64,000 bases of DNA from Trichormus sp. ATA11-4-KO1 (lineage in GTDB: Bacteria; Cyanobacteriota; Cyanobacteriia; Cyanobacteriales; Nostocaceae). Made by a program: the position numbers and the translations under genes. This document shows, piece after piece, positions 18,091 through 60,659 of the stretch. Under the pieces are notes generated by a model. It was not told the DNA's origin, made no database searches, and was given only the letters and a program-made list of their open reading frames with translations. Location of the stretch: assembly GCA_019358915.1 (NCBI GenBank), contig JAHHIM010000020.1, positions 1 to 64,000 of the forward strand. The letters are read 5' to 3'. How positions within the stretch are numbered: position 1 is the first letter of the stretch; the number at the start of each line of letters is the position of its first letter.

Positions 18091-18137
18091 AGTCAAAAAG
18101 TCAAATATAATTGTATTAAAAATAAGTGAATTAAATA

Positions 18138-18389: not shown

Positions 18390-18430
18390 GTTTTTGACAT
18401 TTGTAAAACTTTTTATATGGAAGTCAAAAC

Positions 18431-19612: not shown

Positions 19613-19616
19613 AAAC

Positions 19617-20714: not shown

Positions 20715-23700
20715 ATGGACAACACAAAAGACAAACTTTTACAACGACGATCAAAGCTTTCACCTGCTCAGCGCGCCCTGCTGGAAAAACGGCTGCGGGG
20801 TGAAGTTGATTCTCAATTAAAAGTCATTCCCAGACGTTCTCAAATAAGTCCTGCGCCCCTATCTTTTGCCCAGCAAAGGTTGTGGTTTCTTCATCAATTA
20901 GATCCCGATAATCCTTACTATAGTGAGCTAGCGTGTGTACAGCTCTTGGGTACGCTGAATATAGATGCTCTAGAAAAAAGTTTCAACGAAATTGTGCAAC
21001 GCCATGAAGCCTTACGTACTACTTTTGAGATAGTTGCAGAACAAGCAGTTCAAGTTATTCATCCTACTGTAACTGTCAGAGTTCCAGTGGTGAACTTGCG
21101 CTTAATGCCAGAAGTTGAACGACAAGTACAAATTGAGCAGTTAACCACACAGATAGCTCAAAAACCCTTTGACTTGGCAACTGCTCCGTTATTGCGGACT
21201 ATGCTGCTGCAAATAGATGCACAAGAATATTTACTGCTATTCACGATTCATCATATTGTTGTTGATGGCTGGTCTATTGGATTATTCATTCGTGAATTAG
21301 CCGCACTTTATGAAGCCTTTTCTATAGGCAAAACATCTCCTCTTCCTGAACTTCCTATCCAGTATGCAGACTTTGCCATTTGGCAACGTCAGTGGTTGCA
21401 AGGGGAATTACAAAAGACGCAACTTGATTATTGGAAGCAACAGTTGGCAGGCGCTGCAACCTTGGTTTTACCCACAGATAGACCAAGGCCAGCAGTCCAA
21501 AGCTTCCGAGGTGCAGTGGCTTCTTTTGAGCTATCAGCAAGCTTAACTGATATGCTTAGGGATTTGAGCAACGCCGAAGGGGTAACCCTGTTTATGACTC
21601 TTTTGGCTGCGTTTCAAGCTTTACTTTACCGTTACACAGGGCAAGAAGACATTTGCGTTGGTTCCCCAATTGCAAACCGCAACCAAAGCGAGATTCAAGG
21701 GTTGATTGGTTTTTTTGTCAATACCCTTGTGCTGCGAACTCATCTTTCTGGTAATCCCTCTTTTTTGGAATTGTTGAATCGAGTGCGCGAGGTATGCGTA
21801 GGTGGGTATGCCCATGCAGATATACCTTTTGAGCAGTTGGTAGAAGAACTGCAACCAGAAAGAAACCTCAGTCATATGCCTTTGTTTCAGGTAATGTTTG
21901 CCTTACAGGAAGATACCCAAAAGGAATTGACACTACCTGGTTTAAGTTTGAATTGGCTACCTGCGGATACTCGGACTGCTAGGTTTGATTTAACTCTGCA
22001 CATTGTAGATGCTAAACCAGAATTGAGGGGGTTATTAGAATACAGAACCGATTTGTTTGATACTGCAACTATTACTCGGATAGTAAAGCATTTTCAGACT
22101 TTACTAGAAGGGATTATAGCAAATCCACAAGCAAGGTTATCCGACTTACCACTATTGACGGCTGATGAGTTACATCAGCAATTACTGGAGTGGAATAATA
22201 CAAAAGTTGAATATCCTCAACAGCAATGCATTCATCAGTTATTTGAAGCGCAAGTAGAACGCACACCTGATGCAATAGCAGTAGTCTTTGAGGATGAACA
22301 GTTAACTTATTGGGAATTAAATACCAGAGCGAATCAATTAGCACACTATTTGCGATCGCTGGGAGTAAAACCAGAGGTATTGGTGGGGATTTGTGTGGAG
22401 CGTTCCTTGGATATGGTTATCGGACTATTAGCCATCCTCAAAGCTGGTGGCGCATACGTACCCCTAGATCCAAACTATCCCAAAGAACGATTAGCATTTA
22501 TCCTAAAAGACACTCAGGCTCCAGTGTTACTAACTCAAGCATCTCTTATGGAAGTAATGCCGCAACACAAAGCTCAAGTTGTTTCTTTAGATACTGATTG
22601 GCATCTGATTGAACAACAAAGTCCAGACAATTTATTCTCTCAACTAACTCCTGATAACCTGGCTTATATCATTTATACCTCTGGTTCAACAGGCAGACCC
22701 AAAGGTGTAATGATTAAACACAGTAGCACAGTTGCAATGTTGAATTGGGCAAACAAAACCTACACAATTGAAGATAGGAAAGGAGTTTTGGCATCCACTT
22801 CAATTTGCTTCGACCTTTCGGTTTTTGAGTTGTTTGTGCCTCTGTGTTGCGGTGGCAAGCTTATTTTAATTGAGAATGCCCTATATTTATCAACTTTGCC
22901 AACAGCCTTTAATGTAACCTTAATTAATACTGTCCCAAGTATAATTTTACAGTTATTCAAAAATAATGCTATTCCAACTTCAGTCCAGACTGTGAATTTA
23001 GCAGGAGAAGCACTTCACAATCAACTCGTACAGCAACTTTATTGCCAGGATAATATAAAACAAATATTTAACTTATATGGGCCTTCTGAAGATACAACTT
23101 ATTCAACTTCGGCTTGGATACACAAGGGTACTAACAACACCCCACCGATTGGTTTCCCAATTCACAACACGCAGACTTATTTGTTAGATCAGAATTTACA
23201 ACTTGTTCCTATAGGCGTACCAGGAATGTTGTATGTTGGCGGTGCAGGTTTAGCCCGTGGTTATCTAAACAAACCAGAACTGACTGCGGAGAAATTTATT
23301 CCCAATCCTTACACAAAATTGCCAGGGGAAAGGTTATATAAAACTGGAGATTTAGCCCGCTATTTACCAAATGGAGAACTAGAATACATTGGTCGCATTG
23401 ACTATCAAGTAAAAGTTCGTGGTTTCCGTATTGAAATAGGAGAAATTGAAGCATTTATTCTTCAGCATCTGGGAGTACAAGAAGCTGTAGTTACAGTTCA
23501 TTCTTCGGCAACAGATTCTCAACAAATAGTTGCCTATGTAGTCCCCAAATCCCAGCAAACGCCAACGATTTCTGAACTACGCAGTTTTTTGAAAACTAAG
23601 TTGCCAAACTACATGGTGCCAACAGCTTTTGTTATCTTGCAGGCACTACCTCTGACACCTAATGGTAAGATTGACCGTAAGGCATTAAAAGCACCTGATA

Positions 23701-25391
23701 CAGCAAGAAATCAAGATAAAGAACTAGTAATACCGCGTAATTGTCTAGAAGCCAAGCTGACAGAAATTTGGGTAGATGTGCTGGGCGTGGAACAAGTGGG
23801 TATTTTCGATAACTTTTTTGAATTAGGTGGGGATTCTATCCTTGCCATTGTAGTTATTACCAGAGCTAACCAAGCAGGTTTAAAACTGACCGTTAAACAG
23901 TTATTTCAACATCAAACAGTTGCCGATTTGACATCTGTAGCAGTAACAAAAAAGGTAACCCAAGCTGAACAAGGGCTGATAACAGGTTTAGTCTTTCTCA
24001 CACCGATCCAGAAATGGTTCTTTGAACAAAATCTCCTCGCACCCCATCACTGGAACCAAGCAGTTTTACTAGAAGTTAAACATGTTCTTGACCTAGCTGT
24101 ATTAGAAAAATCCATACAGCAATTGTTATTACACCATGATGCTCTCCGCTTACGATTTGAGCAAACAGAGTCTGGTTGGCAGCAGATTATAGCTAGCTTA
24201 GATGTAAAAATCCCCTTAATACATTTGGATTTCTCTGATTTATCAGAAAACGAACAGGAACTAGCCATCGAAGCAGCAGCCACCAAATTACAAGCTAGTT
24301 TGAATCTCTCAGATGGTTTACTAATGCGAGTTGCTTTGTTTGACTTAGGGTATCGACCAAGGCATTTGTTGATTATCATCCATCATTTAGTTGTAGATGG
24401 CGTTTCTTGGCGGATTTTACTGGAAGATTTGGAGACAGTATACCAACAATTCAATCAAGGCAAAAAGATACAACTGCCATCAAAGACAACTTCGTGGAAA
24501 TATTGGTCGCAATGCCTACAAGAATATGCACAATCAACTACTCTTGAGCAAGAATGGGACTATTGGCTGCGAGAATCTTGGCAACAGATTACTCCTTTAC
24601 CAGTTGATTTTTCTGACGGTGAAAATACAGTAGCTTCGACTCAAAACATCTCAATTGTTCTGACGGTAGAACAGACTCAAGCCTTACTAAAAAAAGTGCC
24701 AAAAGCTTATAATACACAAATTAACGATGTCTTGCTCACGGCACTAGTACAAGCTTTTTATCAATGGACTGGGAAGAATTTTGTATTACTAGCTCTAGAA
24801 GGTCATGGGCGAGAAGAAATTTTCGCTGGTGTCGATTTGTCACGCACGGTAGGTTGGTTTACATCGATTTTTCCAGTGCTATTAGATTTGAGGGAAACGT
24901 CTCATCCTATAGAGGCGTTGAAATTAATTAAAGAGCAACTGCGGGGTATTCCCAATAAAGGCATGGGTTATGGTGTCCTACGTTATTTGAGTCAGAATAA
25001 TCCAAAAGTTGAGTTATTGCGATCGCTTCCCCAACCTGAGGTAGTCTTCAATTACTTAGGTCAGTTCGATCAAACATTTTCAGACTCATCAATATTTAAA
25101 ATTTCTCAGGACGCTCAAGGACAAACACGCAATTCGTTGAACGGGGAAGCCTATATCCTCAGTATCGATGCTTTGGTAATTGATCAGCAATTAAGAATAA
25201 ATTGGACTTACAGCGAAAAAATACATCGACGAAGCACGATTGAAAGACTAGCACAAGGATTTTTAGAAGCATTACAAACACTCATCACTCATTGCCAATC
25301 TCCTGAAATTGGCGGATATACACCTTCTGATTTTCCAGAAGCAGACTTGAGTCAAGAAGATTTGGAACGGTTTTTAGAAAGAATCAATTAA
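20715..25391 (+). CDS. NRPS: C-A(Ala)-PCP-E (D-Ala module) with C-terminal COM tail
   Basis: C HHIVVDG; code DLFNNALTYK (Ala); PCP GGDSI; E motifs LTPIQKWF, HHLVVDGVSW, EGHGRE, RTVGWFT, FNYLGQFD; tail YTPSDFP. Confidence 0.92.
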   Translation: MDNTKDKLLQRRSKLSPAQRALLEKRLRGEVDSQLKVIPRRSQISPAPLSFAQQRLWFLHQLDPDNPYYSELACVQLLGTLNIDALEKSFNEIVQRHEALRTTFEIVAEQAVQVIHPTVTVRVPVVNLRLMPEVERQVQIEQLTTQIAQKPFDLATAPLLRTMLLQIDAQEYLLLFTIHHIVVDGWSIGLFIRELAALYEAFSIGKTSPLPELPIQYADFAIWQRQWLQGELQKTQLDYWKQQLAGAATLVLPTDRPRPAVQSFRGAVASFELSASLTDMLRDLSNAEGVTLFMTLLAAFQALLYRYTGQEDICVGSPIANRNQSEIQGLIGFFVNTLVLRTHLSGNPSFLELLNRVREVCVGGYAHADIPFEQLVEELQPERNLSHMPLFQVMFALQEDTQKELTLPGLSLNWLPADTRTARFDLTLHIVDAKPELRGLLEYRTDLFDTATITRIVKHFQTLLEGIIANPQARLSDLPLLTADELHQQLLEWNNTKVEYPQQQCIHQLFEAQVERTPDAIAVVFEDEQLTYWELNTRANQLAHYLRSLGVKPEVLVGICVERSLDMVIGLLAILKAGGAYVPLDPNYPKERLAFILKDTQAPVLLTQASLMEVMPQHKAQVVSLDTDWHLIEQQSPDNLFSQLTPDNLAYIIYTSGSTGRPKGVMIKHSSTVAMLNWANKTYTIEDRKGVLASTSICFDLSVFELFVPLCCGGKLILIENALYLSTLPTAFNVTLINTVPSIILQLFKNNAIPTSVQTVNLAGEALHNQLVQQLYCQDNIKQIFNLYGPSEDTTYSTSAWIHKGTNNTPPIGFPIHNTQTYLLDQNLQLVPIGVPGMLYVGGAGLARGYLNKPELTAEKFIPNPYTKLPGERLYKTGDLARYLPNGELEYIGRIDYQVKVRGFRIEIGEIEAFILQHLGVQEAVVTVHSSATDSQQIVAYVVPKSQQTPTISELRSFLKTKLPNYMVPTAFVILQALPLTPNGKIDRKALKAPDTARNQDKELVIPRNCLEAKLTEIWVDVLGVEQVGIFDNFFELGGDSILAIVVITRANQAGLKLTVKQLFQHQTVADLTSVAVTKKVTQAEQGLITGLVFLTPIQKWFFEQNLLAPHHWNQAVLLEVKHVLDLAVLEKSIQQLLLHHDALRLRFEQTESGWQQIIASLDVKIPLIHLDFSDLSENEQELAIEAAATKLQASLNLSDGLLMRVALFDLGYRPRHLLIIIHHLVVDGVSWRILLEDLETVYQQFNQGKKIQLPSKTTSWKYWSQCLQEYAQSTTLEQEWDYWLRESWQQITPLPVDFSDGENTVASTQNISIVLTVEQTQALLKKVPKAYNTQINDVLLTALVQAFYQWTGKNFVLLALEGHGREEIFAGVDLSRTVGWFTSIFPVLLDLRETSHPIEALKLIKEQLRGIPNKGMGYGVLRYLSQNNPKVELLRSLPQPEVVFNYLGQFDQTFSDSSIFKISQDAQGQTRNSLNGEAYILSIDALVIDQQLRINWTYSEKIHRRSTIERLAQGFLEALQTLITHCQSPEIGGYTPSDFPEADLSQEDLERFLERIN

Positions 25392-25411: not shown

Positions 25412-26809
25412 ATGAGAGAAAATATCGAAGATATATACCCCCTATCTCCCATACAGCATGGTATGCTGTTTCACAGGTTGCAAGCCCCAGAAATGGGACT
25501 ATATCATATACAATTAGTCTATACTTTCAGTGGCAATCTCAACATTGCTGCATTTATATACGCTTGGCAGCAAGTCACAAACCGCCACACAATCTTGCGT
25601 ACAAGCTTCTATTGGGAAGAATTAGATAAACCATTACAAGTGGTGCATCAACAAGTAGAAGTACCTGTAGAGTACCAAAATTGGCGACAACTTGAGCAAT
25701 TTGAACAACAAGAGCGTTTAAAGTCTTTTCTTGATAGCGATCGCCTACAGAGTTTTGATTTTTCCCAAGCACCTCTAATGCGTGTGGCTATCATCCAAAT
25801 TCAGGAAAACTCCTACTATCTTGTTTGGAGTCATAACCTAATTATTCTAGATGGTTGGTCATATCCATTAGTATTAAATGATGTGATTGAAATTTATGAA
25901 GCGTGCTGTCTTGGTCAAGATGCGCCCTTATCCAAGGGTAGTTGCTTTAAAGATTACATAAAATGGCTCAAACAGCAAGATTTAGTAAAAGCTGAGGAGT
26001 TTTGGCGACAGCAACTCCGTGGAGTCAAACAACCAACTCCTTTAACTAACTTATACTCAAATACCTCATCCAATGAAGAAAACTATGAGGATATACAAAT
26101 TAGCCTATCTCAAGAAACTACAAATAATCTAAATTTATTGGCAAGACAGCATCACCTCACCATGAATACTCTAGTTCAGGGAGCTTGGGCTATACTTCTG
26201 TATTACTACAGTGGCAAAAATGATGTAGTCTATGGCTGTACTACTTCTGGTCGTCCAGTAGATTTAGAGGGTTCGGAATCAATGGTAGGGGAAATGGTTA
26301 ATACCTTACCAGTACATGTCAAGGTAAACATGGATGAGTATTTATTACCTTGGCTGCAAGAATTACAAAATCAATTAATAGATATTCGTGAGTATGAATA
26401 TTACCCGTTGGTAAATATTCAAAAATGCAGCAAAGTGCCAGGAAATGTGCCTTTATTTGAAAGCATCGTGGTGTTTGAGAATCAAAAAACAGGCAAATTT
26501 TTGGAACAATGGGGAAGTTTAAACATCTGTGAGAGAATTAACTTTTACAAAACTAACTATCCTCTAACTATAGTTGGATATCCTGGCTCAGAACTGACAC
26601 TCGGAATTAATTATGATTTTCACCGCTTTGATGCGGCAACAATCATGAATATATTGGAACATCTAAAGAGACTGCTTGAAGGCATAGTGACGAATCCGCA
26701 AGTATGTCTTCAAAAATTATTGTTGTTTATAGAACAAAAACGCCACATTGAATTATTAAGTTTAGAAACAGAAATGTCATTAGATTTTGATTTTGTGTCA
26801 ACCAATTAA
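25412..26809 (+). CDS. Stand-alone DCL-like condensation domain lacking the catalytic His
   Basis: N-terminal ENIEDIYPLSPIQHGMLFH; active-site region WSHNLIILDGWS instead of HHxxxDG. Confidence 0.85.
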   Translation: MRENIEDIYPLSPIQHGMLFHRLQAPEMGLYHIQLVYTFSGNLNIAAFIYAWQQVTNRHTILRTSFYWEELDKPLQVVHQQVEVPVEYQNWRQLEQFEQQERLKSFLDSDRLQSFDFSQAPLMRVAIIQIQENSYYLVWSHNLIILDGWSYPLVLNDVIEIYEACCLGQDAPLSKGSCFKDYIKWLKQQDLVKAEEFWRQQLRGVKQPTPLTNLYSNTSSNEENYEDIQISLSQETTNNLNLLARQHHLTMNTLVQGAWAILLYYYSGKNDVVYGCTTSGRPVDLEGSESMVGEMVNTLPVHVKVNMDEYLLPWLQELQNQLIDIREYEYYPLVNIQKCSKVPGNVPLFESIVVFENQKTGKFLEQWGSLNICERINFYKTNYPLTIVGYPGSELTLGINYDFHRFDAATIMNILEHLKRLLEGIVTNPQVCLQKLLLFIEQKRHIELLSLETEMSLDFDFVSTN

Positions 26810-28140
26810 TGTCAGAAGGCATTATGTTAACATTTGACATCTTCCTAAAAATATTGTGTAATTCATTCAAAAATAATCACACCATGAATATATTTGAAAA
26901 ATGTGAATCAAACGTCAGGAGCTATTGCCGTAATTTTCCCGACATCTTTCATAGAGCTAAAGGTTCTCTCATTTATTCTGACTCAGGTAGAGAGTATATT
27001 GATTTTTTTGCGGGAGCAGGTGCTTTAAATTATGGACATAATCATGACTATATCAAACAAAAGGTCATCTCATATTTAGAAGCTGATGGCATAGCACATG
27101 GTTTAGATATGTATACTTCAGCCAAGGAGAAGTTTTTATCCAAATTTCATGAAATTGTCTTAACTTCAAAAAAACTCGATTATCGCGTTCAGTTTTGTGG
27201 TCCAACAGGAACAAATGCAGTAGAAGCGGCTTTAAAACTAGCGAGAAAAGTCAAACAAAGAACAGGCATATTCTCCTTCATGGGAGCATATCATGGCATG
27301 ACATTAGGCAGCCTATCTATTAGCGGCAACACTACAATTAAATCGAGTGCAATTGGTACATCCAGTAATGTCACATTTATGCCTTATCCCTATGGATTCA
27401 TGGCAAGTTTTGATACAATAGAATATATAGAGTCGGTGTTAAATGATGTCAACTCCGGAATTGAAAAACCAGCAGCAATCATCTTTGAAACAGTGCAAGC
27501 TGAAGGTGGAGTTGTTGTCGCTCCTATTGAATGGATGCAAAGATTAAGAAATTTGTGTGACGAGAATGATATTTTATTGATCTGTGATGATATTCAAGTC
27601 GGCTGTGGTCGAACTGGCTCTTTCTTTTCTTTTGAAAGAGCAGATATTATTCCTGATATGGTAGTACTTTCTAAATCTATTAGTGGATATGGTTTTCCCA
27701 TGTCACTATTATTGATTAAACCAGAATTAGATATCTGGGAACCGGGTGAACATAATGGCACTTTTCGGGGTAATCAATTAGCATTTATCGGCGCAACAGC
27801 AGCTTTAGAGTATAGAGAAAGTAGTAATCTTGAACAAGATGTCAAAGGTAAAGAGCTTCTTTTAAAAAAATTTCTTACTCAAGAAATAGCGCCAATCAAT
27901 GAAAATATAGCTATACGTGGAATTGGTATGATTTGGGGTATTGATGTAAAAAATTTTGGGGGTCAGAGTTTCGCCAAAAGTATCACATCGCGTTGCTTTG
28001 AATTAGGTGTAATAGTTGAATGTGCAGGTAGAAATGATACTGTAATTAAAATTTTACCACCTTTGATAATTGATACAACCACCTTAGAAAAGGGTTGCTC
28101 AATTATTAAAAAAGCTTTTGATGATTGCTTGTCAAATTAA
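26809..28140 (+). CDS. Diaminobutyrate-2-oxoglutarate aminotransferase (class III PLP; EctB/PvdH-like)
   Basis: ESNVRSYCR, DFFAGAGALNYGHN, DDIQVGCGRTG, LSKSISG (PLP Lys), GEHNGTFRGN. True start may be ATG 26884. Confidence 0.9.
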   Translation: MSEGIMLTFDIFLKILCNSFKNNHTMNIFEKCESNVRSYCRNFPDIFHRAKGSLIYSDSGREYIDFFAGAGALNYGHNHDYIKQKVISYLEADGIAHGLDMYTSAKEKFLSKFHEIVLTSKKLDYRVQFCGPTGTNAVEAALKLARKVKQRTGIFSFMGAYHGMTLGSLSISGNTTIKSSAIGTSSNVTFMPYPYGFMASFDTIEYIESVLNDVNSGIEKPAAIIFETVQAEGGVVVAPIEWMQRLRNLCDENDILLICDDIQVGCGRTGSFFSFERADIIPDMVVLSKSISGYGFPMSLLLIKPELDIWEPGEHNGTFRGNQLAFIGATAALEYRESSNLEQDVKGKELLLKKFLTQEIAPINENIAIRGIGMIWGIDVKNFGGQSFAKSITSRCFELGVIVECAGRNDTVIKILPPLIIDTTTLEKGCSIIKKAFDDCLSN

Positions 28141-28186
28141 ATTGACATCCGTTCACACTTCAAAAAAACACTTATCAGGAGAAAAT

Positions 28187-30955
28187 ATGATGCAGACATC
28201 ATACTTTAATGACTTATTATCTCAAAGAATTTACTGGCTAAATAAGTTGTCAGGAGAACTACCAGAAACAAATCTGATGCTGGATTTTGTCAGACCTTTA
28301 GTTTCTAGTAATAAAAACAAATCTCTTAGCTTTAACTTATCAAATGACTTATCTCAAGCCATTATTAAGTTAACTCAAGGTTCTTACTTTTCCACTTACT
28401 GGGTACTAGTATCTGCATTGAATATCTTGCTGCAAAAATACACTCAAAATAATGATGTTATTGTGGGAATACCTATATATGAACAAATTGGTACAGATTG
28501 TGTAAGTAGCAAAGTAATTCCTTTGAGGACTCAGGTAAATCCCCAAGTTTTATGCAAAGATTATCTTTTAACAGTTAAAAAGGAAATTATCAGTGCTTTC
28601 AACAATCAAAACTATCATTTTGATGAATTAATTCAGTTGTTATATCTGCCTACAGTTCCTAATCGTTGCTCACTCTTTGATATAGTAATTTTATTGGAAA
28701 ATATTCATGATAAAAAGCATTTAGGTCAGCTTAATAATGATATTACAATTTCCTTTTCAGTCAACCCTGAAGGTATTAATGGCTATATTGAGTATAAAGA
28801 AGATTTATTTAAAGATGAAAATATAAAATTGGTAAGTAGATATTATACTAATGTTATTGCAAATCTGATTGATAACTTAAATGTCAAAATATCGGATATT
28901 GCTTTATTAAAAGACGCAGATAAACACCAGCTATTAACAAAATTCAATGACAATAGTAAAGACTATCCAATTGAGCAGACAATTAATCAATTATTTGAAC
29001 AGCAGGTAGCCAAAAATCCCAACAAAATAGCTGTTATTCATAACTCAAACAAATTAACTTATCAAGAACTCAATCAAAAAGCTAACCAAATTGCCAAATT
29101 ATTGCGGAAATCAGGAATTAAGAAAGGTGAGTTTGTAGGAATTTTTAAAAGCCGTGATCTCAATTTTTTGGTAGCGATTCTGGCAGTATATAAAGCAGGT
29201 GGAGCATACGTACCTATTGATAGTACTTATCCGCCAAATCGAATTCAATATATGCTATCTAATAGCAATGTCAGGTTTTTATTCACAGATTTTTCACTAC
29301 TAAATGTTTTAGAACAATTGGTGGGAGAGTGTGAAAAATTGGAGTCTATTATTTGTTTAGATGATGTAACTCCTGAACATCTATCGCTTACAAATCAGTC
29401 TAATTTAAATATATATAATAAATATAATTATTATCAGTTACCTCATGACAACATAGAAAATATTAATAATGCTGTAGACCCAGCTTATATGCTTTATACT
29501 TCTGGGTCTACAGGACTACCCAAAGGGGCAATTGTCAGACATGACGGTGCAATTAATCATATTTATGCTCAATTTGATGCTTTAGAATTAAATGAAGAGT
29601 TTTGTTTCCTGCAAAGTGCGCCTGCTTCAACTGATATTTCTGTTTGGCAATTTCTGGCACCAATTTTAATTGGAGGAAAGACTGTAATTATCGATATTGA
29701 AACTGTGGCAATTCCTGAAAAATTATTTAAAGTAATTAAATCCGAGAAAATTACAGTTGTAGAATTAGTACCAACATTATTTGGAGGTTTACTAGAGTAT
29801 ACTTCCCAACTACGAAGCCATGAAAGAGTATTACCAGATTTAAAGTGGATGATGTTATCTGGTGAATCTGTTTCAATTCAATGGGTAAATAAATGGTTGG
29901 AAATGTACCCAGAAATTAAAATTGCTAATGCTTATGGACCGACAGAGGCCTCTGATGATATTACTCAATTAATTGTGGACAAGCCTTTTCCTGAGAACCA
30001 AAGAACAGTTCCCATTGGTAAACCATTAGCCAACTTAAATCTCTATATTTTAGATGAGGAAATGCAATTATTACCTATTGGCGCTCCTGGAGAAATTTGT
30101 GTATCGGGAATTGGTGTAGGTAATGGATACTGGAAAAACGAAGAAAAAACCAAATTAAGTTTTGTTCCTAACCCCTTTACAGATGCTAATAATGATTTCC
30201 CGGGAAATTGCAGAGATTTAATTTATAAAACTGGAGATTTAGGAAGATGGCTACCTGATGGCAATATTGAATTTCTGGGACGTATTGATCATCAGGTAAA
30301 AATTCGTGGTTTTCGGGTAGAATTGGGTGAAATTGAAACGTTTTTAGGTCAACATCCACTCGTACGTGAAAATATAGTTTTAGTTCAGCAAGAAGAAACA
30401 GGTAACGCTCAATTACTTGCTTATGTGGTGGCAAAAACGGAAGTAGTTCCTAGTATTAGTGAATTGCGTAGCTTTTTGAAGGAAAAATTACCTGATCACA
30501 TGATTCCTTCTATTTTTGTAATGTTGGAAAATCTTCCGTTGGCACCAAGTGGTAAAGTAGACCGTAAAACTTTACCTCAAGCAGATAATCTGCGTCCGGA
30601 ACTAGAAACAGCTTATATATCTCCGCGAAATGAGATAGAGCGAATAGTTGCCGATATTTGGCAGAAAATACTGAAAGTAGAAAAAGTCGGTATTCAAGAT
30701 AACTTTTTTGACCTTGGTGGTCATTCGCTAAATATGCTTCAGGTTTACAGTAAACTGCGGGAACTTTTTAAAGCTGACTTAGCAATAACTGATCTGTTTA
30801 AATATCCCACAATTAACTCAATATCTAGATATTTAAGTCAAGAAGAAGATAATAATATCCTTGACAAACAAAGTAATGAATTAAACGAAGAATTGGCAGT
30901 AGGCAAAATTAGATTAAAACAACGATTTTTACGCAATCAACAACAAAATACCTAA
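28187..30955 (+). CDS. NRPS: truncated C (C-terminal lobe only)-A(Dab)-PCP
   Basis: Begins at YWLNKLSGELP, a mid-C-domain motif; code DIWEMSADDK (Dab-like); PCP GGHSL. AGGAG precedes ATG 28187 (ORF track start 28118). Confidence 0.88.
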   Translation: MMQTSYFNDLLSQRIYWLNKLSGELPETNLMLDFVRPLVSSNKNKSLSFNLSNDLSQAIIKLTQGSYFSTYWVLVSALNILLQKYTQNNDVIVGIPIYEQIGTDCVSSKVIPLRTQVNPQVLCKDYLLTVKKEIISAFNNQNYHFDELIQLLYLPTVPNRCSLFDIVILLENIHDKKHLGQLNNDITISFSVNPEGINGYIEYKEDLFKDENIKLVSRYYTNVIANLIDNLNVKISDIALLKDADKHQLLTKFNDNSKDYPIEQTINQLFEQQVAKNPNKIAVIHNSNKLTYQELNQKANQIAKLLRKSGIKKGEFVGIFKSRDLNFLVAILAVYKAGGAYVPIDSTYPPNRIQYMLSNSNVRFLFTDFSLLNVLEQLVGECEKLESIICLDDVTPEHLSLTNQSNLNIYNKYNYYQLPHDNIENINNAVDPAYMLYTSGSTGLPKGAIVRHDGAINHIYAQFDALELNEEFCFLQSAPASTDISVWQFLAPILIGGKTVIIDIETVAIPEKLFKVIKSEKITVVELVPTLFGGLLEYTSQLRSHERVLPDLKWMMLSGESVSIQWVNKWLEMYPEIKIANAYGPTEASDDITQLIVDKPFPENQRTVPIGKPLANLNLYILDEEMQLLPIGAPGEICVSGIGVGNGYWKNEEKTKLSFVPNPFTDANNDFPGNCRDLIYKTGDLGRWLPDGNIEFLGRIDHQVKIRGFRVELGEIETFLGQHPLVRENIVLVQQEETGNAQLLAYVVAKTEVVPSISELRSFLKEKLPDHMIPSIFVMLENLPLAPSGKVDRKTLPQADNLRPELETAYISPRNEIERIVADIWQKILKVEKVGIQDNFFDLGGHSLNMLQVYSKLRELFKADLAITDLFKYPTINSISRYLSQEEDNNILDKQSNELNEELAVGKIRLKQRFLRNQQQNT

Positions 30956-30978: not shown

Positions 30979-33900
30979 ATGAAAGTCTCAGCAGATTTAA
31001 GTAATATAACTGGTTTAGAAATAGCGATTATTGGTATGAGTGGCTGTTTTTCTGGCGCTCAAAATATTGAGGAGTTTTGGCAAAATCTGCGAGATGGAGT
31101 GGAATTAATCCATAGATTTTCCGATCAAGAATTAGAAAAATTAGGTATAGAAGCTGCCTTATTAAAAGACCCAAATTATGTTAAAGCCGAGGGTGTAGTT
31201 AATGGTATAGACTTATTTGATGCTTCATTCTTCGACATCAGTCCGAGGGAAGCTGAAGTTATGGACCCTTCACTGCGTTTTTTCTTGGAACATTCATGGA
31301 AAGCACTTGAAGACGCAGGTTATAGCTGTGAAGCCTATAAAAAACCAATTGCAGTCTATGCCGGTGCAAGTTTTGACAGTTATCTACTTAATATATATTC
31401 AAATTACGAGCTTGTAGCCTCTCTTGGTGATAGACAGATAGAAAAAGGAACTTCTCCAAGTTGTGTTACTACACTTACTTCTTATAAATTAAACTTACAA
31501 GGGCCGAGTTATACAGTTCAAACCACCTGCTCCAGCTCATTAGTTGCTGTACATTTAGCTTGTCAAAGTTTGCTCAGTGGTGAGTGTAATATTGCTTTAG
31601 CCGGAGGAGTTTCAATATCGACAGCAGATGGTTATTTATATCAAGAAGGAGGAATTGAATCACCCGATGGACATTGCCGTGCTTTTGATGCAAAAGCTGC
31701 GGGAACCGTCAGAGGCAGGGGTTTAGGTGTTATCGTTCTCAAGCGTTTAGAAGAAGCGATCGCCGATGGAGATACCATCCATGCTATTATTAAAGGCTCT
31801 GCTATTAATAACGATGGGTCAGATAAAGTTAGCTACACGGCACCCAGCGTCAATGGTCAAGCCAAGGTAATTAGAGCCGCTCAGGTAATGGCTGAGGTCG
31901 AACCCGATACCATTACCTATATCGAAGCACACGGCACTGGAACTGCTTTAGGTGATCCCATTGAAATATCTGCGTTAACACAAGCTTTTCGGACTAAAAC
32001 ACTCAAAAAAGGCTTTTGTGGCATTGGTTCTGTGAAAACTAACATAGGACATTTAGATGCAGCTGCAGGAATCGCAGGTTTGATTAAGACTGTACTAGCT
32101 TTAAAACACAAACAAATTCCGCCTAGTTTGAACTTTGAAGAACCATCACCCCAAATAGATTTCGCCAATAGTCCTTTTTATATCAATCACAAATTATCTG
32201 AGTGGAAAACTAACGGTATCCCTCGCCGTGCAGGTGTTAGTTCCTTCGGTTTTGGCGGCACAAATGCCCATGTGATTTTGGAAGCAGCTCCAGTAATTGA
32301 ACCCTCCAGTCCTTCTCGTCCCTGGCAATTATTATTACTTTCAGCTAAGACGAATACAGCACTGGAAACTGCTACCGAAAATCTGGCTAATCATCTCAAA
32401 AAGCATCCAAATTTAAATCTCGCTGATGCTGCTCATACTTTGCAAGTGGGGCGCTGGACTCTGAATCATCGCCGCATGGTAGTTTGCCAAAATCAAGAAG
32501 ATGCAATTAAGGCACTGCAAGACCCGCAAAGAGCATTCATCCATTATCAAGAACCTTGTAATCGCCCAGTTGCGTTTATGTTTTCTGGGCAAGGTTCGCA
32601 ATATGTAAATATGGGTCGGGAATTATACGACAGCGAAATTATATTTAGAGAACAAGTTGATTACTGCTGCAAACTGCTTAAACCTCACTTAAAATTAGAC
32701 TTGCGTATAGTTCTTTATCCCAACGAAGAAACATCTCAAGCAGCAACACAAAAATTGCAGCAAACAGCAATTACTCAACCAGCCCTGTTCGTCATTGAAT
32801 ACGCTCTTGCTAAGTTATGGATGACATGGGGTGTACGCCCACAGATGATGATTGGTCACAGTATAGGAGAGTATGTAGCTGCGACTTTGGCTGGAGTGTT
32901 TTCTTTAGAAGATGCTTTATTCATAGTAGCCACAAGAGGAAAACTCATGCAGGAGTTACCTGGTGGTGCTATGCTCTCAATTCAGCTTCCAGAAAAGGAA
33001 GTACAAAAATTCCTAGAAAAAGAAATATCTCTAGCTGCAAGTAATGCGCCTTCTTCCTGCGTGGTATCTGGTACCACAGAAGCAATAGAGAACTTGCAAC
33101 ATAAATTACAACAAATAGGTGTAAGTTGTAGGCCTTTGCATACTTCCCATGCCTTTCATTCTCCAATGATGACATCCGTCATTGAAAGCTTTGTGCAATT
33201 GTTACAAACAGTCAAACTCAATCCGCCTCAAAGTCCTTTTGTGTCAAACGTTAGTGGAACTTGGATAACAACAGCCCAAGCAACAGACCCCAATTATTGG
33301 GCAAAACATTTAAGGCAACCTGTACGTTTTTGTGAAGGAATTATTGAGTTAGCTAAAACCCCAGAAATATTATTCTTAGAAGTAGGCCCTGGAAGGACTT
33401 TAAGCACTTTTGTTAAACAACAACAAAAAGCAGAATCTTTAGTACTGACCTCAATGCGCCATCCCCAAGAGCAGCAGTCTGATGTCGAATTTTTATTGAA
33501 TAGTTTAGGTAAGCTATGGCTAGTGGGGGTGAAAGTAGATTGGTCTGGTTTTTACTCCTATGAGCGTCGTCATCGCATTCCTTTACCAACTTATCCGTTT
33601 GAACGCCAGCGTTACTGGATTGAGGTAAATAAAAACGCGACTCTGGCTATGAAGCAACAGCAATCGACAGACAAAAAGCCAGATATTGCTGACTGGTTTT
33701 ACATTCCTCGTTGGAAAGAATCTACACCGCTCCAGCTTTTTCCCCAAGAGAAACTAGTAGAACAAAAATTATGTTGGTTAGTGTTTGTTGATACCTATGG
33801 AGTGGGCACAGAAATTGCCGAACGACTCAAACAACAAGGTCAGGATGTAATTAGCGTCAAATTTGCAGATAATTTTGCAAAAATTAGTGACTGTATATAT

Positions 33901-35715
33901 ACAATTAATCCTCAGCAAAGGGATGACTATGATAGTTTGCTGCAAGCATTACAACAAAAGAATTGGATTCCACAAAGAATTGCCCATTGTTGGAGCGTTA
34001 CTCCCAACGATGTTGTATCTAGTCAAGAGCTAGACGAACAAACACAAAATCAATTTTTTGAAGATTTTCAGTATCTCGGTTTCTGGAGCTTGCTTTTTTT
34101 GGCGCAGGCATGGGGAAAACGAGATATTAAGAATTGTTTGAAGTTGATGGTCGTAACTAGTAATTTATATGATGTCACTGGTGAAGAAAAATTATGCCCC
34201 TCAAAGGCAACCTTATTAGGTCCATGTAAGGTAATTCCCAAGGAATATTCCCATATAAATTGCTGTACTATTGATATAGTAATTAACTCTGCAAAAACCC
34301 TATTAGAACCCAAAGTTTTAAATAATCTCATCCTAGAATTTACAGCAGAGCCAAGTAATGACATAGTTGTCTATCGTGGCAATCGTCGCTGGATTCAATC
34401 CTTCGAGCCTGTGCGTTTAGAGCAGAGCATAGCTGATAAAACTAAGTTAAGGGAGGGAGGGGTTTACTTAATTACTGGTGGATTAGGTGGCATTGGTTTA
34501 GTATTAGCAGAACACCTAGCAAAGACTGTGCAGGCTAAATTGGTGCTGGTGGGACGCAAGCAACTTCCTGAAAAAGATAATTGGTCTCAATGGTTAGCAA
34601 CTCATGATGAGCAAGATAAGGTGAGCCAGATAATTCATCATGTGCAATTATTGGAGAGTTTTGGTGCAGAAGTTTTGGTAATTAGTGCTGATGTAACTAA
34701 TTTCGCACAAATGCAATCTGTAATTGCTCAGTCAGTAGAAAAATTTGGTCAGATTCATGGTGTAGTCCATGCAGCTGGTGTTGCTGGTGGAGGTATCATA
34801 CAACTCAAAACCCAGGAGATAGCAAATAAGGTACTAGCACCAAAAGTTAGAGGAACAATAGTACTCAAGCAAGTTTGTCAGAGAATTAATCTAGATTTCT
34901 TGGTGCTGTGCTCATCTCAAAGCTCTATTTTGGGTGAATTTGGACAGGTTGATTATTGTGCAGCTAATAACTTTTTAGATGTATATGCCTATAATGTTAA
35001 TAAATCTGGACTGTTAACAATATCAATCGACTGGGACACTTGGCAAGAAGTCGGTATGGCAGTGGAAACTGTTGTCCCAAATGAAATTAAACAAATAAGG
35101 GAAAAAGAGCGAAATAAAGGAATCAAGTCTCAAGAAGGAATCGAAGCTTTTAATCGTATTTTGTCAGTTAATCTACCTCATGTTATTGTATCGACACAAG
35201 ATTTTGCAGCTTTAATTGAGCATAATAATTCTTTCAAGTATCTCGAAGAAGGATTAGCATCTTTAGAAGATAAATTAGCTTCAACAAGCCTTTCTCAAGC
35301 AATCCATCCCCGTCCTCATCTACGTAATGATTATGTTGCTCCTCGCAATGAAGAGGAAGTAATTGTGGCTCAAATCTGGCAAAATTTGCTAGGAATTAAA
35401 CAGATAGGTATTTATGATAATTTTTTTGAATTGGGAGGAGATTCCTTATTAGCCACTCAACTTTTTTCTCGGTTACATAAAGAGTTTCCAGTCAAACTGT
35501 CTTTGCATAGCTTTTTTGCTGCGCCCACTATCATTGAACAAGCCTTAATAGTTAAACAGAGTCACAATTCAGGAGAAAATAGTAACCTCAAAATGATAGA
35601 AAGAATCGAGCGAAGTAATGAACAACAAACATTAGCCAAGCTTGATGAAATTTCTGATCAAGAAATTGAGCTATTACTTAATAATATGTTAGCAAGCAAA
35701 GAGGCTAACCAATGA
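30979..35715 (+). CDS. Type I PKS module: KS-AT-KR-ACP
   Basis: KS TTCSSS/HGTGT/NIGH; AT GHSIG and HAFHS; KR GGLGGIG and YCAAN; ACP GGDSL. Confidence 0.93.
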   Translation: MKVSADLSNITGLEIAIIGMSGCFSGAQNIEEFWQNLRDGVELIHRFSDQELEKLGIEAALLKDPNYVKAEGVVNGIDLFDASFFDISPREAEVMDPSLRFFLEHSWKALEDAGYSCEAYKKPIAVYAGASFDSYLLNIYSNYELVASLGDRQIEKGTSPSCVTTLTSYKLNLQGPSYTVQTTCSSSLVAVHLACQSLLSGECNIALAGGVSISTADGYLYQEGGIESPDGHCRAFDAKAAGTVRGRGLGVIVLKRLEEAIADGDTIHAIIKGSAINNDGSDKVSYTAPSVNGQAKVIRAAQVMAEVEPDTITYIEAHGTGTALGDPIEISALTQAFRTKTLKKGFCGIGSVKTNIGHLDAAAGIAGLIKTVLALKHKQIPPSLNFEEPSPQIDFANSPFYINHKLSEWKTNGIPRRAGVSSFGFGGTNAHVILEAAPVIEPSSPSRPWQLLLLSAKTNTALETATENLANHLKKHPNLNLADAAHTLQVGRWTLNHRRMVVCQNQEDAIKALQDPQRAFIHYQEPCNRPVAFMFSGQGSQYVNMGRELYDSEIIFREQVDYCCKLLKPHLKLDLRIVLYPNEETSQAATQKLQQTAITQPALFVIEYALAKLWMTWGVRPQMMIGHSIGEYVAATLAGVFSLEDALFIVATRGKLMQELPGGAMLSIQLPEKEVQKFLEKEISLAASNAPSSCVVSGTTEAIENLQHKLQQIGVSCRPLHTSHAFHSPMMTSVIESFVQLLQTVKLNPPQSPFVSNVSGTWITTAQATDPNYWAKHLRQPVRFCEGIIELAKTPEILFLEVGPGRTLSTFVKQQQKAESLVLTSMRHPQEQQSDVEFLLNSLGKLWLVGVKVDWSGFYSYERRHRIPLPTYPFERQRYWIEVNKNATLAMKQQQSTDKKPDIADWFYIPRWKESTPLQLFPQEKLVEQKLCWLVFVDTYGVGTEIAERLKQQGQDVISVKFADNFAKISDCIYTINPQQRDDYDSLLQALQQKNWIPQRIAHCWSVTPNDVVSSQELDEQTQNQFFEDFQYLGFWSLLFLAQAWGKRDIKNCLKLMVVTSNLYDVTGEEKLCPSKATLLGPCKVIPKEYSHINCCTIDIVINSAKTLLEPKVLNNLILEFTAEPSNDIVVYRGNRRWIQSFEPVRLEQSIADKTKLREGGVYLITGGLGGIGLVLAEHLAKTVQAKLVLVGRKQLPEKDNWSQWLATHDEQDKVSQIIHHVQLLESFGAEVLVISADVTNFAQMQSVIAQSVEKFGQIHGVVHAAGVAGGGIIQLKTQEIANKVLAPKVRGTIVLKQVCQRINLDFLVLCSSQSSILGEFGQVDYCAANNFLDVYAYNVNKSGLLTISIDWDTWQEVGMAVETVVPNEIKQIREKERNKGIKSQEGIEAFNRILSVNLPHVIVSTQDFAALIEHNNSFKYLEEGLASLEDKLASTSLSQAIHPRPHLRNDYVAPRNEEEVIVAQIWQNLLGIKQIGIYDNFFELGGDSLLATQLFSRLHKEFPVKLSLHSFFAAPTIIEQALIVKQSHNSGENSNLKMIERIERSNEQQTLAKLDEISDQEIELLLNNMLASKEANQ

Positions 35716-41471: not shown

Positions 41472-41486
41472 TGCAAAAAACAGGTT

Positions 41487-44400: not shown

Positions 44401-44753
44401 AAGTGTTAGCTGGAATTTGGGCAGATATTCTAGAACTACCGCAAGTTGGTATCTATGACAACTTCTTTGAGGTAGGTGGAGATTCGATTCTCAGCATTCG
44501 CATTGTTGCTAAAGCCAATCAAGCGGGTTTACAACTTACCCCCAAGCAGATGTTTGAATATCAGACAATTGCCGAACTCGCAGCCGTGGTGCAGGTAAAT
44601 CAAGAGAAGCAACTGGAAGAGGAAATTCCGTTGACACCCCCTCAACCTCCGTCTCACAACAGCGCAAGTTATACACCCTCCGACTTTCCGCAAGCAAATT
44701 TAAACCAAAAAGATTTAGATAATTTTCTGACAAAACTCAATCAAAAAAAATGA
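41487..44753 (+). CDS. NRPS: interface-like degenerate C-A(Asp)-PCP with E-domain remnant and COM tail
   Basis: N-terminal GFRLSPQQ; active-site region LSALIAD; code DLTKIGHVGK (Asp); PCP GGDSI; ends IPLTPPQ...YTPSDFP. Start may be ATG 41493. Confidence 0.88.
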   Translation: MNMQKQQISGFRLSPQQKHLWLLQQNDLTAPYRVQCAVLITEKLKTDVLKTALQNVVNQYEILRTTFSFLPGMEIPLQVIVDNYNISLTEFNFTDLSWQEQESKIESLLTEIKTVHFNLENNPPFQAYIVSLSSEKYILILNLSALIADSSTLKYLINKISTSYSACLQGQDISNEPIQYADIAEWQNELLDSEESELGKEYWRKQDITSIDNLHLWFENQQIETSEFQPQCISLTINNDLVKQIESLTHIYNVNKCDFLLACWLIMLWKITRQPDMFIGVASDGRKYEELDQALGLLTKYLPLCFHLEAEFKFSEILKQVTESANNAYEWQEYFTWEETFKSEAFCPFSFEFAENYSVADLSFSLYKQYSCIDKFKINLICIDKSDSLITELHFDANLYNTQDIQTLSEQFKTLLEDAIANPEATISQLNILSDRTLQKILVEFNNTTVDYPSNKCLHQLFEEQVARTPEQIAVIFEQQQLTYTQLNARANQLAHYLRQHGVGSEVVVALYMERSLELIIGLLAILKAGGAYIPLDPAYPQERLAWMLADAKVPILLTQQQLVKTLPEHSAQVICWDQEEDAIAHQSQENPHSSVNPENLVYVLFTSGSTGKPKGVAVEHRQLSNYLNAIVQTLDLSGCNSFAHISTFAADLGNTIIFPSLCTGGCLHIVSSERISNPEALADYFHQHPIDCLKIVPAHLAALMTASQPEKILPRQRLILGGEACNWQLIEQIQQLTTECRIFNHYGPTETTVGVLTYPIEPGKTPLNSNTVPIGRPIPNTQIYILDSCLQPVPIGVPGELHIGGASVTRGYLNHPDLTNQKFITNPFIKTGCLYKTGDLARYLPDGNIEFLGRIDQQVKIRGYRIELGEIEIVLKQHPSMREAVVICHEEQTGNKRLIAYVVVKTQSALNNTHLREFLQEKLPQYMLPSVFMQLQALPLLPNGKINRQALPVPDTSKAEFAVAPRTQVEEVLAGIWADILELPQVGIYDNFFEVGGDSILSIRIVAKANQAGLQLTPKQMFEYQTIAELAAVVQVNQEKQLEEEIPLTPPQPPSHNSASYTPSDFPQANLNQKDLDNFLTKLNQKK

Positions 44754-46171
44754 AAACAGAAAACATCGAAGATATTTACGAACTGTCACCAATACAAAAA
44801 GGGATTCTGTTTCACAGCTTATTTGCTCCGGAATTGGGACTGTATTTTTTTCAGATGCCCTTTGTTTTGCGTGGTCATCTTAATGTTGCAGCTTTTGAGC
44901 AAGCTTGGCAAGAAGTAGCAGCTAGACACACAATCTTACGCACTGGTTTTTATTGGGAAGACATTAACAAACCACTACAAGTGGTGTATCGAGAAATCCA
45001 AATAACTCTAGATGAGCATGATTGGCGGGAAATAGATTCTAGTCAACAGCAACAGCAATTAAAGTCATTTCTGGAGAGCGATCGCCAGCGAGGCTTTGAT
45101 ATGTCTCAAGAATGTTTAATGCGTCTGAGTTTGTTCCGCCTCACAGATGATTGTTATCAATTTGTTTGGAGCCGACACTTTATCGTTTTAGATGGGTGGT
45201 CAGTACCTATAGTGCTGAATGAGGTAATTCAAATTTATGAAGGACTTTGTCAAGGTAAGCAAGTATCGTTAACACCCAGCATTCCCTATCGGCATTACAT
45301 CAACTGGTTGCAAAAGCAAAATATATCTGAAGCAGAGGTATTCTGGCGACAAGCATTGCATGGTTTAAAAACCCCTACTTCCTTACAAAAGTTAAATGCA
45401 AAAAATCTTTCTCCCCAGGAAGCAAAATATGAAGAACAACGCATCACTGTATCGACAGCAACCACAACAGCCCTACAGTTTCTAGCAAGACAGCATCAGC
45501 TGACGCTGAGTACACTTTTTCAGGGATTATGGGCTATTCTTTTGAGTCACTATAGTGGTGAAAAAAAAGTCCTTTATGGGTGTACTGTTGCTGGTCGTCC
45601 TATCGAACTAGTCAGAGAAGAACCACTTTTAGGATTATTTGTTAACAGCTTGCCTGTATGGGTGGACGTGGACGCTGAACAATTTCTGCTGGTGTGGCTG
45701 AAGCAACTTCAAAAACAAATAGTTGAAATGCGCCAGTATGAATGGACACCATTGGTAGAGATTCAAGGATGGAGTGAAATACCACGTAGCTTACCTTTAT
45801 TTGAGAGCATTTTAGTCTATGAAAACGCACCAGTAGAGAAAATTTTACAAGAAGGGCATAGTATTATAGATATCTCAAATTCATCTATATTCTCTGATTC
45901 AAGTACTTTTTATAAGACTAACTATCCTATCGCAATAGCTGTTTATCCAGGTTCCAGTTTTTGTATTGGCATTGATTATGATTTCCGCCGCTTCGACGCT
46001 GCAACAATTACTGGCATATTGCAGCATTTTGATATCTTACTCCAAAACATAATAAATCATCCTGAAGTGCGTATTCAGGAATTATCTTTGCTGACGGATC
46101 GAGAGCAAAACATCTCTGTGATGTTGGAAAAACAAATAATATTTAATTTTAATTTAACTGCGTGCAATTAG
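44750..46171 (+). CDS. Second stand-alone DCL-like condensation domain lacking the catalytic His
   Basis: ENIEDIYELSPIQKGILFH; WSRHFIVLDGWS. Paralogue of 25412-26809. Confidence 0.85.
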   Translation: MKTENIEDIYELSPIQKGILFHSLFAPELGLYFFQMPFVLRGHLNVAAFEQAWQEVAARHTILRTGFYWEDINKPLQVVYREIQITLDEHDWREIDSSQQQQQLKSFLESDRQRGFDMSQECLMRLSLFRLTDDCYQFVWSRHFIVLDGWSVPIVLNEVIQIYEGLCQGKQVSLTPSIPYRHYINWLQKQNISEAEVFWRQALHGLKTPTSLQKLNAKNLSPQEAKYEEQRITVSTATTTALQFLARQHQLTLSTLFQGLWAILLSHYSGEKKVLYGCTVAGRPIELVREEPLLGLFVNSLPVWVDVDAEQFLLVWLKQLQKQIVEMRQYEWTPLVEIQGWSEIPRSLPLFESILVYENAPVEKILQEGHSIIDISNSSIFSDSSTFYKTNYPIAIAVYPGSSFCIGIDYDFRRFDAATITGILQHFDILLQNIINHPEVRIQELSLLTDREQNISVMLEKQIIFNFNLTACN

Positions 46172-60654: not shown

Positions 60655-60659
60655 AATTT

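Follow-up and report, generated by a model that had tools for sequence, protein, structure and literature searches.

A free-standing condensation domain without motif histidines and a partner half-condensation domain in a conserved cyanobacterial cassette

How can a nonribosomal peptide synthetase (NRPS) join two residues when the only condensation (C) domain available for the bond lacks both histidines of the HHxxxDG motif? The question is raised by a stretch of 64,000 nucleotides of Trichormus sp. ATA11-4-KO1 (contig JAHHIM010000020.1, positions 1 to 64,000; hereafter the window), whose large open reading frames (ORFs) all lie on the plus strand and together form one hybrid polyketide synthase (PKS)/NRPS cluster. 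Between a module that would supply D-Ala and a module that probably activates L-2,4-diaminobutyrate (Dab), the cluster encodes a free-standing C domain in which the motif reads NLIILDG, followed by an EctB-type transaminase and by a protein at whose N-terminus a C domain is represented by its C-terminal lobe alone (half-C). This arrangement, referred to below as the cassette, is conserved in many cyanobacteria and is no one-off defect of this genome.

The split module and its putative substrates

The upstream donor protein (20715..25391) has the layout C-A-T-E, i.e. C, adenylation (A), thiolation (T) and epimerization (E) domains, and matches Pfam Condensation twice in addition to AMP-binding and PP-binding. 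The second Condensation hit is taken as the E domain, since this segment matches E domains (40-81% identity) situated directly 5′ of the C domain in most of the homologous loci described below. A-domain pockets were read via anchor positions in GrsA numbering. The pocket of the donor module, DLFNNALTY, is one that we take to be an Ala code (DLTKIGHVG, DILQLGMIW and DVGEIGSID being taken likewise as codes for Asp, Gly and Orn, respectively), and since this Ala pocket is accompanied by an E domain, the donor residue would be D-Ala.

The free-standing C domain (25412..26809) is a protein of 465 aa of the DCL type with a complete two-lobe C fold of ~450 aa. That is, the Pfam Condensation profile covers residues 6-441 (profile positions 2-449 of 456, 322 bits), residues 3-450 align to the solved C1 domain of McyB (8hlk; 407 bits), and the monomer model reached a pLDDT (predicted local distance difference test) of 81.2 and a pTM (predicted template modelling score) of 0.80. 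The sequence at the motif region is VWSHNLIILDGWS, in which HMMER aligned WSHNLIILDGWS without gaps to NHHHIILDGWS of McyB C1. NLIILDG (25835..25855) thereby falls on the HHxxxDG site, with N142 at the position of the first His (His1), L143 at that of the catalytic second His (His2), and the D, G, W and S residues kept. The close orthologues of this NL type are 79-89% identical across genera. The initial annotation of the region, made from the sequence without database searches, had read both His as lost, and the alignment confirms it. The same alignment was used to check whether the His of the local sequence SHNL (His141) could occupy the catalytic position or act as a substitute base: it lies two residues N-terminal to His2, and Ser takes its place in three (P0008, P0016 and L089) of the five closest orthologues of the NL type that were seen. 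Being both out of register and not conserved, it is no replacement catalyst, and the annotation survives this check. Identity as a heterocyclization (Cy) domain was rejected because the DxxxxD motif is absent, the sequence here being N....D and other cassette C domains having HF, HM, HL, NH or HH. Furthermore, a domain scan of the window revealed no other C, Cy or equivalent domain between the T-E of the D-Ala module and the T domain of the Dab module. With N142/L143 in the full C and no motif in the half-C, the annotation's further claim that no canonical catalytic His is available for the D-Ala–Dab bond is borne out. The absence of a second C between the two T domains also sets the protein apart from X or interface domains, i.e. 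recruiters with a degenerate site that stand beside a working condensing or releasing domain, as does the invariance of the motif residues other than the two His.

The stop codon of the C gene overlaps the start codon of the next gene (TAATG). The latter (26809..28140) encodes a class-III aminotransferase of the EctB type, i.e. a diaminobutyrate--2-oxoglutarate transaminase, which scores 576.9 bits against the EctB equivalog TIGR02407 (curated cut-off 552.2) and 615.6 bits against NF006733 (cut-off 438). The ORF that follows (28118-30955) matches only positions 189-456 of the Condensation profile (residues 31-273) before its AMP-binding and PP-binding regions. We place the real start of its product, a protein of 922 aa, at the ATG at 28187, since AGGAG is found just 5′ of this codon, the database record is 922 aa long and homologue alignments begin at residues 22-23. 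The protein thus comprises the half-C (28187..28987) and an A domain plus T domain (28988..30955, with GGHSL at 30716).

The model of the half-C (pLDDT 81, pTM 0.82) matches solved single C domains over about half their length (Foldseek TMq 0.75-0.80, TMt 0.40-0.46), and together with the Pfam positions it upholds the annotated view that the Dab protein opens with only a C-terminal lobe. The half-C has neither an N-lobe nor an HHxxxDG motif, and it stands at the very start of a protein, directly joined to the A domain behind it; it shares both features with the C* and ADA (adenylation-activating) domains discussed below. An alignment of 35 half-C sequences gave a mean column identity of 55% and 18 invariant positions. 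In the window's genome, which comprises 5.97 Mb in 73 contigs, the closest non-cassette relatives of the half-C are LCL-type C-lobes (26-29% identity), whereas identity to the C-lobe of its own partner is only 21%, so that the resulting one and a half C domains are of mixed origin and not the product of a duplication. A motif ENIH occupies residues 171-174 of the half-C (28697-28708), where ordinary C-lobes read QNxP; its His is invariant in 35/35 half-C sequences and lies outside the interface predicted below. One relative of the half-C-A-T protein (P0362, 1232 aa) carries a Methyltransf_21 domain (PF05050) inserted in the A domain.

The pocket of the A domain in the 922-aa protein is DIWEMSADD. 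The pattern DIWEM[S/V/T]ADD, with three acidic residues, was found in 48/48 cassette-type A domains of the loci and both window copies. Dab is the likely substrate, as indicated by the adjacent EctB gene and the acidic pocket, and the annotated Dab specificity thus gains support from the TIGR02407 match and the pocket conservation. The polymyxin Dab code differs from DIWEMSADD. A domains with a DIWEM pocket also occur in ordinary in-line C-A-T modules, and in 4/4 of these (L002:1261-8001, L018:2-4789, L018:13591-17376 and L025:1-4686) the in-line C keeps HH. Such in-line modules share a cluster with a cassette in L002 and L018 at least.

Modelling the products of the genes at 25412 and 28187 together, as proposed in the initial annotation and here done with the half-C portion of the latter, gave a complex score of 0.76, the best of three controls scoring 0.00. 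A score of 0.76 is reached by 116/157 solved complexes and by 2/215 mismatched pairs, counts that are only a rough guide here because custom alignments were used. Three complex runs agreed in at least 93% of the contacts, with a partner pLDDT of at least 81. On the side of the free C, the predicted interface has residues 440-462 of the C-terminal tail as its core and additionally includes residues 213-217, 265-268 and 410-417; on the half-C side, it is formed by helices at residues 6-19, 61-73, 98-101 and 124-140. The tail (residues 437-465, encoded at 26720..26806) is a predicted docking peptide. It is disordered in the monomer model (pLDDT <50 for residues 445-465), corresponds in alignments to the beginning of the linker between C and A in the in-line sister domains, and carries a conserved motif whose L451 is shared by 96% of the C domains of the cassettes. 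The model fits a docking peptide that would need its own free C-terminus and a partner with a free N-terminus. Docking via free ends matches the fact that the free C and the half-C were never found fused.

A second copy of the cassette lies further downstream in the window. Its free-standing C domain (44750..46171, 473 aa) has the motif HFIVLDG at 45176-45196, in which the first His is kept and the second lost, and belongs to the same clade as that of copy 1. In neither copy, therefore, does the motif include the second His. The C domain of copy 1 directly follows an E domain (in C-A-T-E), whereas that of copy 2 follows a T domain without E, and both situations occur among the loci. Where copy 1 has EctB, copy 2 has a JMJD5-like JmjC/cupin_8 oxygenase (46252..47142; Cupin_8 match 7e-37), whose best relatives in the PDB are chains of the JMJD5 arginyl hydroxylase (an arginyl C3-hydroxylase; 97 bits). 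The second half-C (47295-48104) opens a protein with the layout half-C-A-T-C-TauD (47295..52421), in which the A pocket is DIWEMVADD. Since cupin and EctB genes stand side by side between the C and half-C genes in many loci, Dab hydroxylation is a reasonable guess for the role of the cupin.

Recurrence of the cassette and loss of the histidines

A protein search with the free C yielded 1629 relatives at E ≤ 0.001; the best 120 of these were nearly all of ~465 aa and almost all cyanobacterial, the nearest ones coming from Nostoc, Rivularia, Calothrix and Nodularia. Genomic context was examined in the best 80 of 600 confirmed genomic relatives, taken with 8 kb of flanking sequence, by mapping domain pieces derived from the window onto stop-to-stop ORFs. 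These loci contained 87 C domains at ≥40% identity, to which the two window C domains were added; L020 gave no motif and was left out of the tree. A C domain was regarded as free-ended if it formed a protein by itself or made up the C-terminal end of the protein encoded upstream. Wherever enough DNA was available downstream (46/46 free-ended C domains, 44 in the loci and 2 in the window), such a C was followed by a cupin_8 gene, an EctB gene or both, and then by half-C-A-T, which was followed in turn by a ketosynthase (KS) or a C domain. The order of the four genes was conserved and all frames were intact. Ten further C domains were left unclassed: eight end at a contig or locus edge, one (L070) has ~3 kb of unassigned DNA before the cupin, and one is in L058. 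The L058 case (7992-15501) comes from an acidobacterial (Pyrinomonadaceae) metagenome-assembled genome (MAG) and consists of a free C whose motif is PL, a TauD and then an A-T protein that lacks a half-C; this C falls outside the cassette clade. In L036 and L064, which are on the same contig of a Richelia MAG, the half-C is split over two reading frames, reflecting a frameshift or an assembly error.

In the reciprocal direction, a half-C search (E ≤ 1e-40) in a sample of 401 genomes of the phylum gave 11 positive genomes including the window's own, and in 10/10 of the others, which belong to two families (5/45 and 5/25), a free C and EctB were found directly upstream; at least two contigs of this set are identical to loci of the 80-locus sample. 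The half-C-A-T family comprises 188 clusters at 90% identity (E ≤ 1e-30), with most members being ~905-928 aa long. In 12/12 longer members checked the half-C was placed at residues 1-31, and among these 12 no fusion of a half-C behind a full C was found. A HMMER search with a half-C profile on a library of 1.84 billion proteins gave a ranking dominated by megasynthetases that sum many C-lobe scores. The half-C was kept in every cassette, across several cyanobacterial orders. Given the 46/46 recurrence and the purifying selection described below, the arrangement is not due to chance. The survey for co-occurrence of His-less C, half-C and Dab A domains suggested with the initial annotation came out in favour of the free C and the half-C protein as obligate partners, both forward (46/46) and reciprocally (10/10), but the cassette is not defined by His loss, since 18/46 of its C domains retain HH.

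A maximum-likelihood tree of 88 C domains (IQ-TREE quick search, LG+G4), the phylogeny likewise suggested at the outset, placed the cassette C domains in one clade with a support of 100 in the SH-aLRT (Shimodaira-Hasegawa-like approximate likelihood ratio test). This clade has 50 rows, i.e. the 46 cassette cases and four domains with cut-off context, and its sister group has 10 rows, of which nine are in-line C domains. The motifs of the 46 cassette C domains are HH in 18 cases, HF in 16, HM in 5, HL in 3, NH in 3 and NL in 1, with no PH, whereas the 32 in-line C domains have HH (31) or PH (1) and none of HF, HM, HL, NH or NL. That is, the second His is replaced by F, M or L in 25/46 cassette C domains, always by a large hydrophobic residue, and is kept in 32/32 in-line relatives. 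Four changes in its presence were mapped on the tree, at least three of them being losses within the cassette clade. Across the cassette loci no correlation was visible between motif type and either an upstream E or T, a downstream KS or C, or the presence of the cupin.

The catalytic frame is otherwise intact, R63, D147, G148, W149, S150, R281, P282 and N297 being invariant in an alignment of 29 sequences that includes both window C domains and His-less members. A substitution next to N297, I296V, accompanies the loss of His2 in all three loss clades, a pattern that looks like repacking and not decay; as this is the only convergent change, a new compensating base in the His-less clades was rejected. 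Two further residues are typical of the cassette clade, irrespective of whether the His is kept. C276 occurs in 98% of the cassette C domains, in-line domains having V, A, T or S instead, and Y379 occurs in 100%, in-line domains having E or D at this position. Ratios of nonsynonymous to synonymous substitution rates (dN/dS) were calculated by the Nei-Gojobori method between the window and the orthologue in L089 (82% identity), which also lacks both His. Values were 0.17 for the free C as a whole and 0.155 for its N-lobe, which contains the mutated motif, compared with 0.16 for EctB, 0.15 for the A domain, 0.13 for the T domain and 0.33 for the half-C. Because of this low ratio and the intact catalytic frame, we regard the His-less C, on comparative grounds, as a working protein under selection whose role does not need the His.

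Possible routes to the D-Ala–Dab bond

The explanation that we favour, and to which we would give about an even chance, is a Dab module split over two proteins and assembled in trans, in which the half-C serves as ADA/C*-like support and docking pad and the full C condenses without the His. Under this model, the free DCL-type C would accept the D-Ala-terminated chain from the C-A-T-E protein that precedes it, EctB would make L-2,4-diaminobutyrate, and the A domain, supported by the half-C, would load Dab on the T domain of the 922-aa protein. The tail of the free C would dock on the half-C, so that two proteins would act as one elongation module, and the amide bond would be made in the intact tunnel of the full C by positioning of the two thioesters and not by His catalysis. 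The KS encoded at 30979 would then take over the Dab-ended chain. Of this scheme we infer the Dab specificity, the full C as the catalyst and the His-independent mechanism.

Precedents exist for several of its parts. Isolated C-lobes before A domains are known as the C* of ACV synthetases and the ADA domains of Lys2-type reductases, and their deletion abolishes ACV formation or adenylation, according to the available portion of PMC7884236. The half-C, which had been singled out as unusual in the initial annotation, is therefore not new in kind. As far as that portion goes, C* and ADA domains are, like the half-C, isolated C-terminal lobes without HHxxxDG at the N-terminus of an A domain, but they sit in aminoadipate-activating initiation modules or reductases and no full-C partner is described for them; the comparison is one of layout. 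The half-C differs in that it keeps C5-C7-like motifs, belongs to an elongation step, and is always accompanied by EctB and by a free-ended full C, to whose tail it is predicted to bind. As for the His, the accessible text of a review (PMC11546977) treats the role of the second His of HHxxxDG as a long-standing open question in NRPS enzymology and notes that its mutation does not always abolish activity, the C domain ORF18 of streptothricin biosynthesis working with HQxxxDM. There, VibH and ORF18 resemble the cassette C in acting in trans with a second His that is naturally absent (ORF18) or tolerant of mutation (VibH), but they use soluble amine acceptors, whereas the cassette acceptor would presumably be carrier-bound Dab, with His2 replaced by F, M or L and lost recurrently within one clade.

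The C domain of PvdL module 4 (9up2, 9lcq) is clearly related to the free C (307 bits). In the pyoverdine siderophore pathway, this DCL domain is placed behind an E domain and condenses a D-residue with Dab. Unlike the cassette C it is in-line, keeps NHHILIDAW and has no half-C, and a Dab transaminase is not encoded between its domains. It bears directly on the substrate-assisted catalysis by the Dab side-chain amine that had been put forward in the initial annotation: since the 4/4 in-line C domains before the DIWEM pocket and the PvdL C before a Dab module all keep HH, assistance by Dab is insufficient as an explanation, and that suggestion is weakened.

Several points speak against the split, His-independent module. 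The same comparison implies that a Dab acceptor alone would not make the His dispensable, which leaves unexplained why it would be so only in the split form. The Dab assignment itself rests on gene context and pocket charge and not on a reference code set. The complex model may borrow intramolecular C-linker-A contacts from solved NRPS structures. In addition, 18/46 cassette C domains keep HH, so that the His-less ones could be impaired versions, and among the parts of the cassette the half-C shows the fastest evolution. A missing second His is usually a sign of an inactive C, and antiSMASH 8 flags such domains (PMC12230676).

In an unlikely alternative, the free C would be a non-catalytic scaffold that only docks, or recruits EctB or the cupin to the carrier-bound substrate, the bond forming unaided or by another enzyme. 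Known C-like recruiters, i.e. the X domain of glycopeptide synthetases and the interface domains of beta-hydroxy-Asp siderophore synthetases, share with the cassette a C fold, a degenerate His motif and proximity to genes of trans-acting tailoring enzymes, and, in the sources as available, are embedded beside a working C or thioesterase with no bond of their own to make. The loss of the catalytic His in 25/46 members, the invariable position of a tailoring gene between the C and half-C genes and the overlap of the C stop with the ectB start all suit a recruiter. However, the cassette has no other condensing domain between the D-Ala T-E and the Dab T to make the bond, D147, G148, R63, R281 and N297 are invariant, the N-lobe is under clear constraint, HH is kept in 18/46, and EctB family members act on free aspartate semialdehyde. 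A far bleaker view, in which the module with the His-less C is decaying or skipped and a separate chain begins at the Dab protein, would draw on the degenerate motif and on the resemblance of an N-terminal half-C-A-T to the initiation module of ACVS; the dN/dS of the free C (0.17), the conserved four-gene order with intact frames, the high identity of NL-type orthologues across genera and a docking prediction that passes its controls make it highly improbable. It is also quite doubtful, though less so, that the half-C is simply a recombination scar, i.e. an acceptor-side lobe carried along when A(Dab)-T and ectB were inserted behind an existing C. Its different origin from the partner lobe, its dN/dS, the highest of all parts, and the fact that standard C-A-T modules do without it around A domains of this pocket type would all be expected of a scar, but it is present in every cassette across several orders, always N-terminal and with 18 invariant positions including the ENIH His, forms the predicted docking surface and has a functional precedent in ADA/C*.

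The chemistry itself could be different. The complex of one and a half C domains might send the chain to the gamma-amine of Dab (isopeptide) or drive cyclodehydration to a tetrahydropyrimidine (cyclic amidine), the His being unneeded or even unwanted, an outcome to which we attach a rather small likelihood. Dab has two amines, the residue at the His2 site is always large and hydrophobic, the clade-specific C276 and Y379 are close in sequence to active-site elements, and the relationship to the PvdL C that precedes Dab is clear. Against this, HH is present and a half-C absent in that PvdL C, the exchange of His2 for F, M or L and of His1 for N does not bring the motifs closer to the DxxxxD of Cy domains, and cassettes with HH and without His have the same downstream partners, KS or C. 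In its most far-reaching form the idea is that of a condensing machine made of two proteins in which the docked C-lobe alters the presentation of the Dab thioester and thereby frees this C clade from its dependence on the catalytic His, with possible contributions of C276, Y379 and the ENIH His, to give a non-standard gamma-amide or cyclic amidine in a widespread, as yet unisolated family of cyanobacterial beta-hydroxy-Asp/Dab lipopeptide siderophores; this, too, we consider improbable.

No description of the cassette was found in the full-text literature on stand-alone or truncated C domains, on cyanobacterial Dab NRPSs and on the PvdL tetrahydropyrimidine, subscription journals lying outside this search. 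The parts (C domain, C*/ADA lobe and EctB) are known, and what appears to be new is their obligate co-occurrence, the predicted way of docking and the decay of the His motif across the clade. The cassette provides a natural series within one architecture, that is, orthologous C domains with HH, HF, HM, HL, NH and NL, all under selection and directly comparable in vitro. If the split module operates as proposed, docking of a C tail on an orphan C-lobe would be a new way to join NRPS proteins, and the ADA/C* concept would reach beyond the aminoadipate enzymes of fungi and actinobacteria to elongation modules of cyanobacteria. These clusters would be mispredicted by genome-mining software in which a C domain without His is flagged as inactive, and the cassette would mark a family of Dab-containing, probably siderophore-type lipopeptides with structures yet to be determined.

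The surrounding modules and the putative product

Domain hits indicate that the cluster starts with a protein of the layout FAAL-ACP-C-A-T (from 1346; FAAL, fatty acyl-AMP ligase; ACP, acyl carrier protein), followed by two PKS proteins, KS-AT-KR-ACP (from 6699; AT, acyltransferase; KR, ketoreductase) and KS-AT-cMT-KR-ACP (from 11336; cMT, C-methyltransferase). Genes for a 3-hydroxyacyl-CoA dehydrogenase, an ACP of 83 aa (18138-18389; PP-binding 29.7 bits), an acyl-CoA dehydrogenase and FkbH (TIGR01686, 276 bits) occupy 17227-20687; they constitute a set for a hydroxymalonyl- or methoxymalonyl-ACP extender, and no separate O-methyltransferase was found among the window ORFs of at least 150 aa. 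Downstream of the first cassette lies another PKS module with the domain hits KS-AT-KR-ACP (30979..35715). It is followed by a C-A-T-E protein (35712-40397) with the pocket DILQLGMIW, which we take, as said, to be a Gly code; an E domain is odd in such a module, since it would epimerize an achiral residue.

The remaining modules lie around the second cassette. A free-standing TauD gene (from 40413) precedes a C-A-T protein (from 41487), and after the second cassette come a C-A-T-R protein (from 52833; R, reductase) and an aldo-keto reductase (from 57192). The C domains at the start of both Asp modules (40413-44753 and 51500-57188; pocket DLTKIGHVG) score weakly (216 and 229 bits). A TauD oxygenase precedes each module, in one case as a separate protein and in the other as the C-terminal part of the preceding protein. 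This layout of TauD and Asp modules is as would be expected for beta-hydroxy-Asp in cyanochelin-type siderophores. The C-A-T-R protein together with the aldo-keto reductase (52833-58463) suggests reductive release to an aldehyde, then an alcohol.

From the module order we infer a product composed of a fatty acyl group, Asn, two ketide units, D-Ala, Dab, one ketide unit, Gly (the module with the E domain), beta-hydroxy-Asp, (hydroxy-)Dab and beta-hydroxy-Asp, ending in reductive release; it would be a cyanochelin-like beta-hydroxy-Asp lipopeptide siderophore. The clusters of cyanochelin B (PMC12628792), cyanochelin C (preprint) and leptochelin (PMC11240249) were considered as matches and rejected, as the architectures differ and the available parts of these sources mention no Dab or transaminase. 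Directly 3′ of the cluster (59404-63532), genes for a DUF4331 protein, a TPR protein and a DsbD_2/NicO-like membrane protein are found, which may relate to metal handling.

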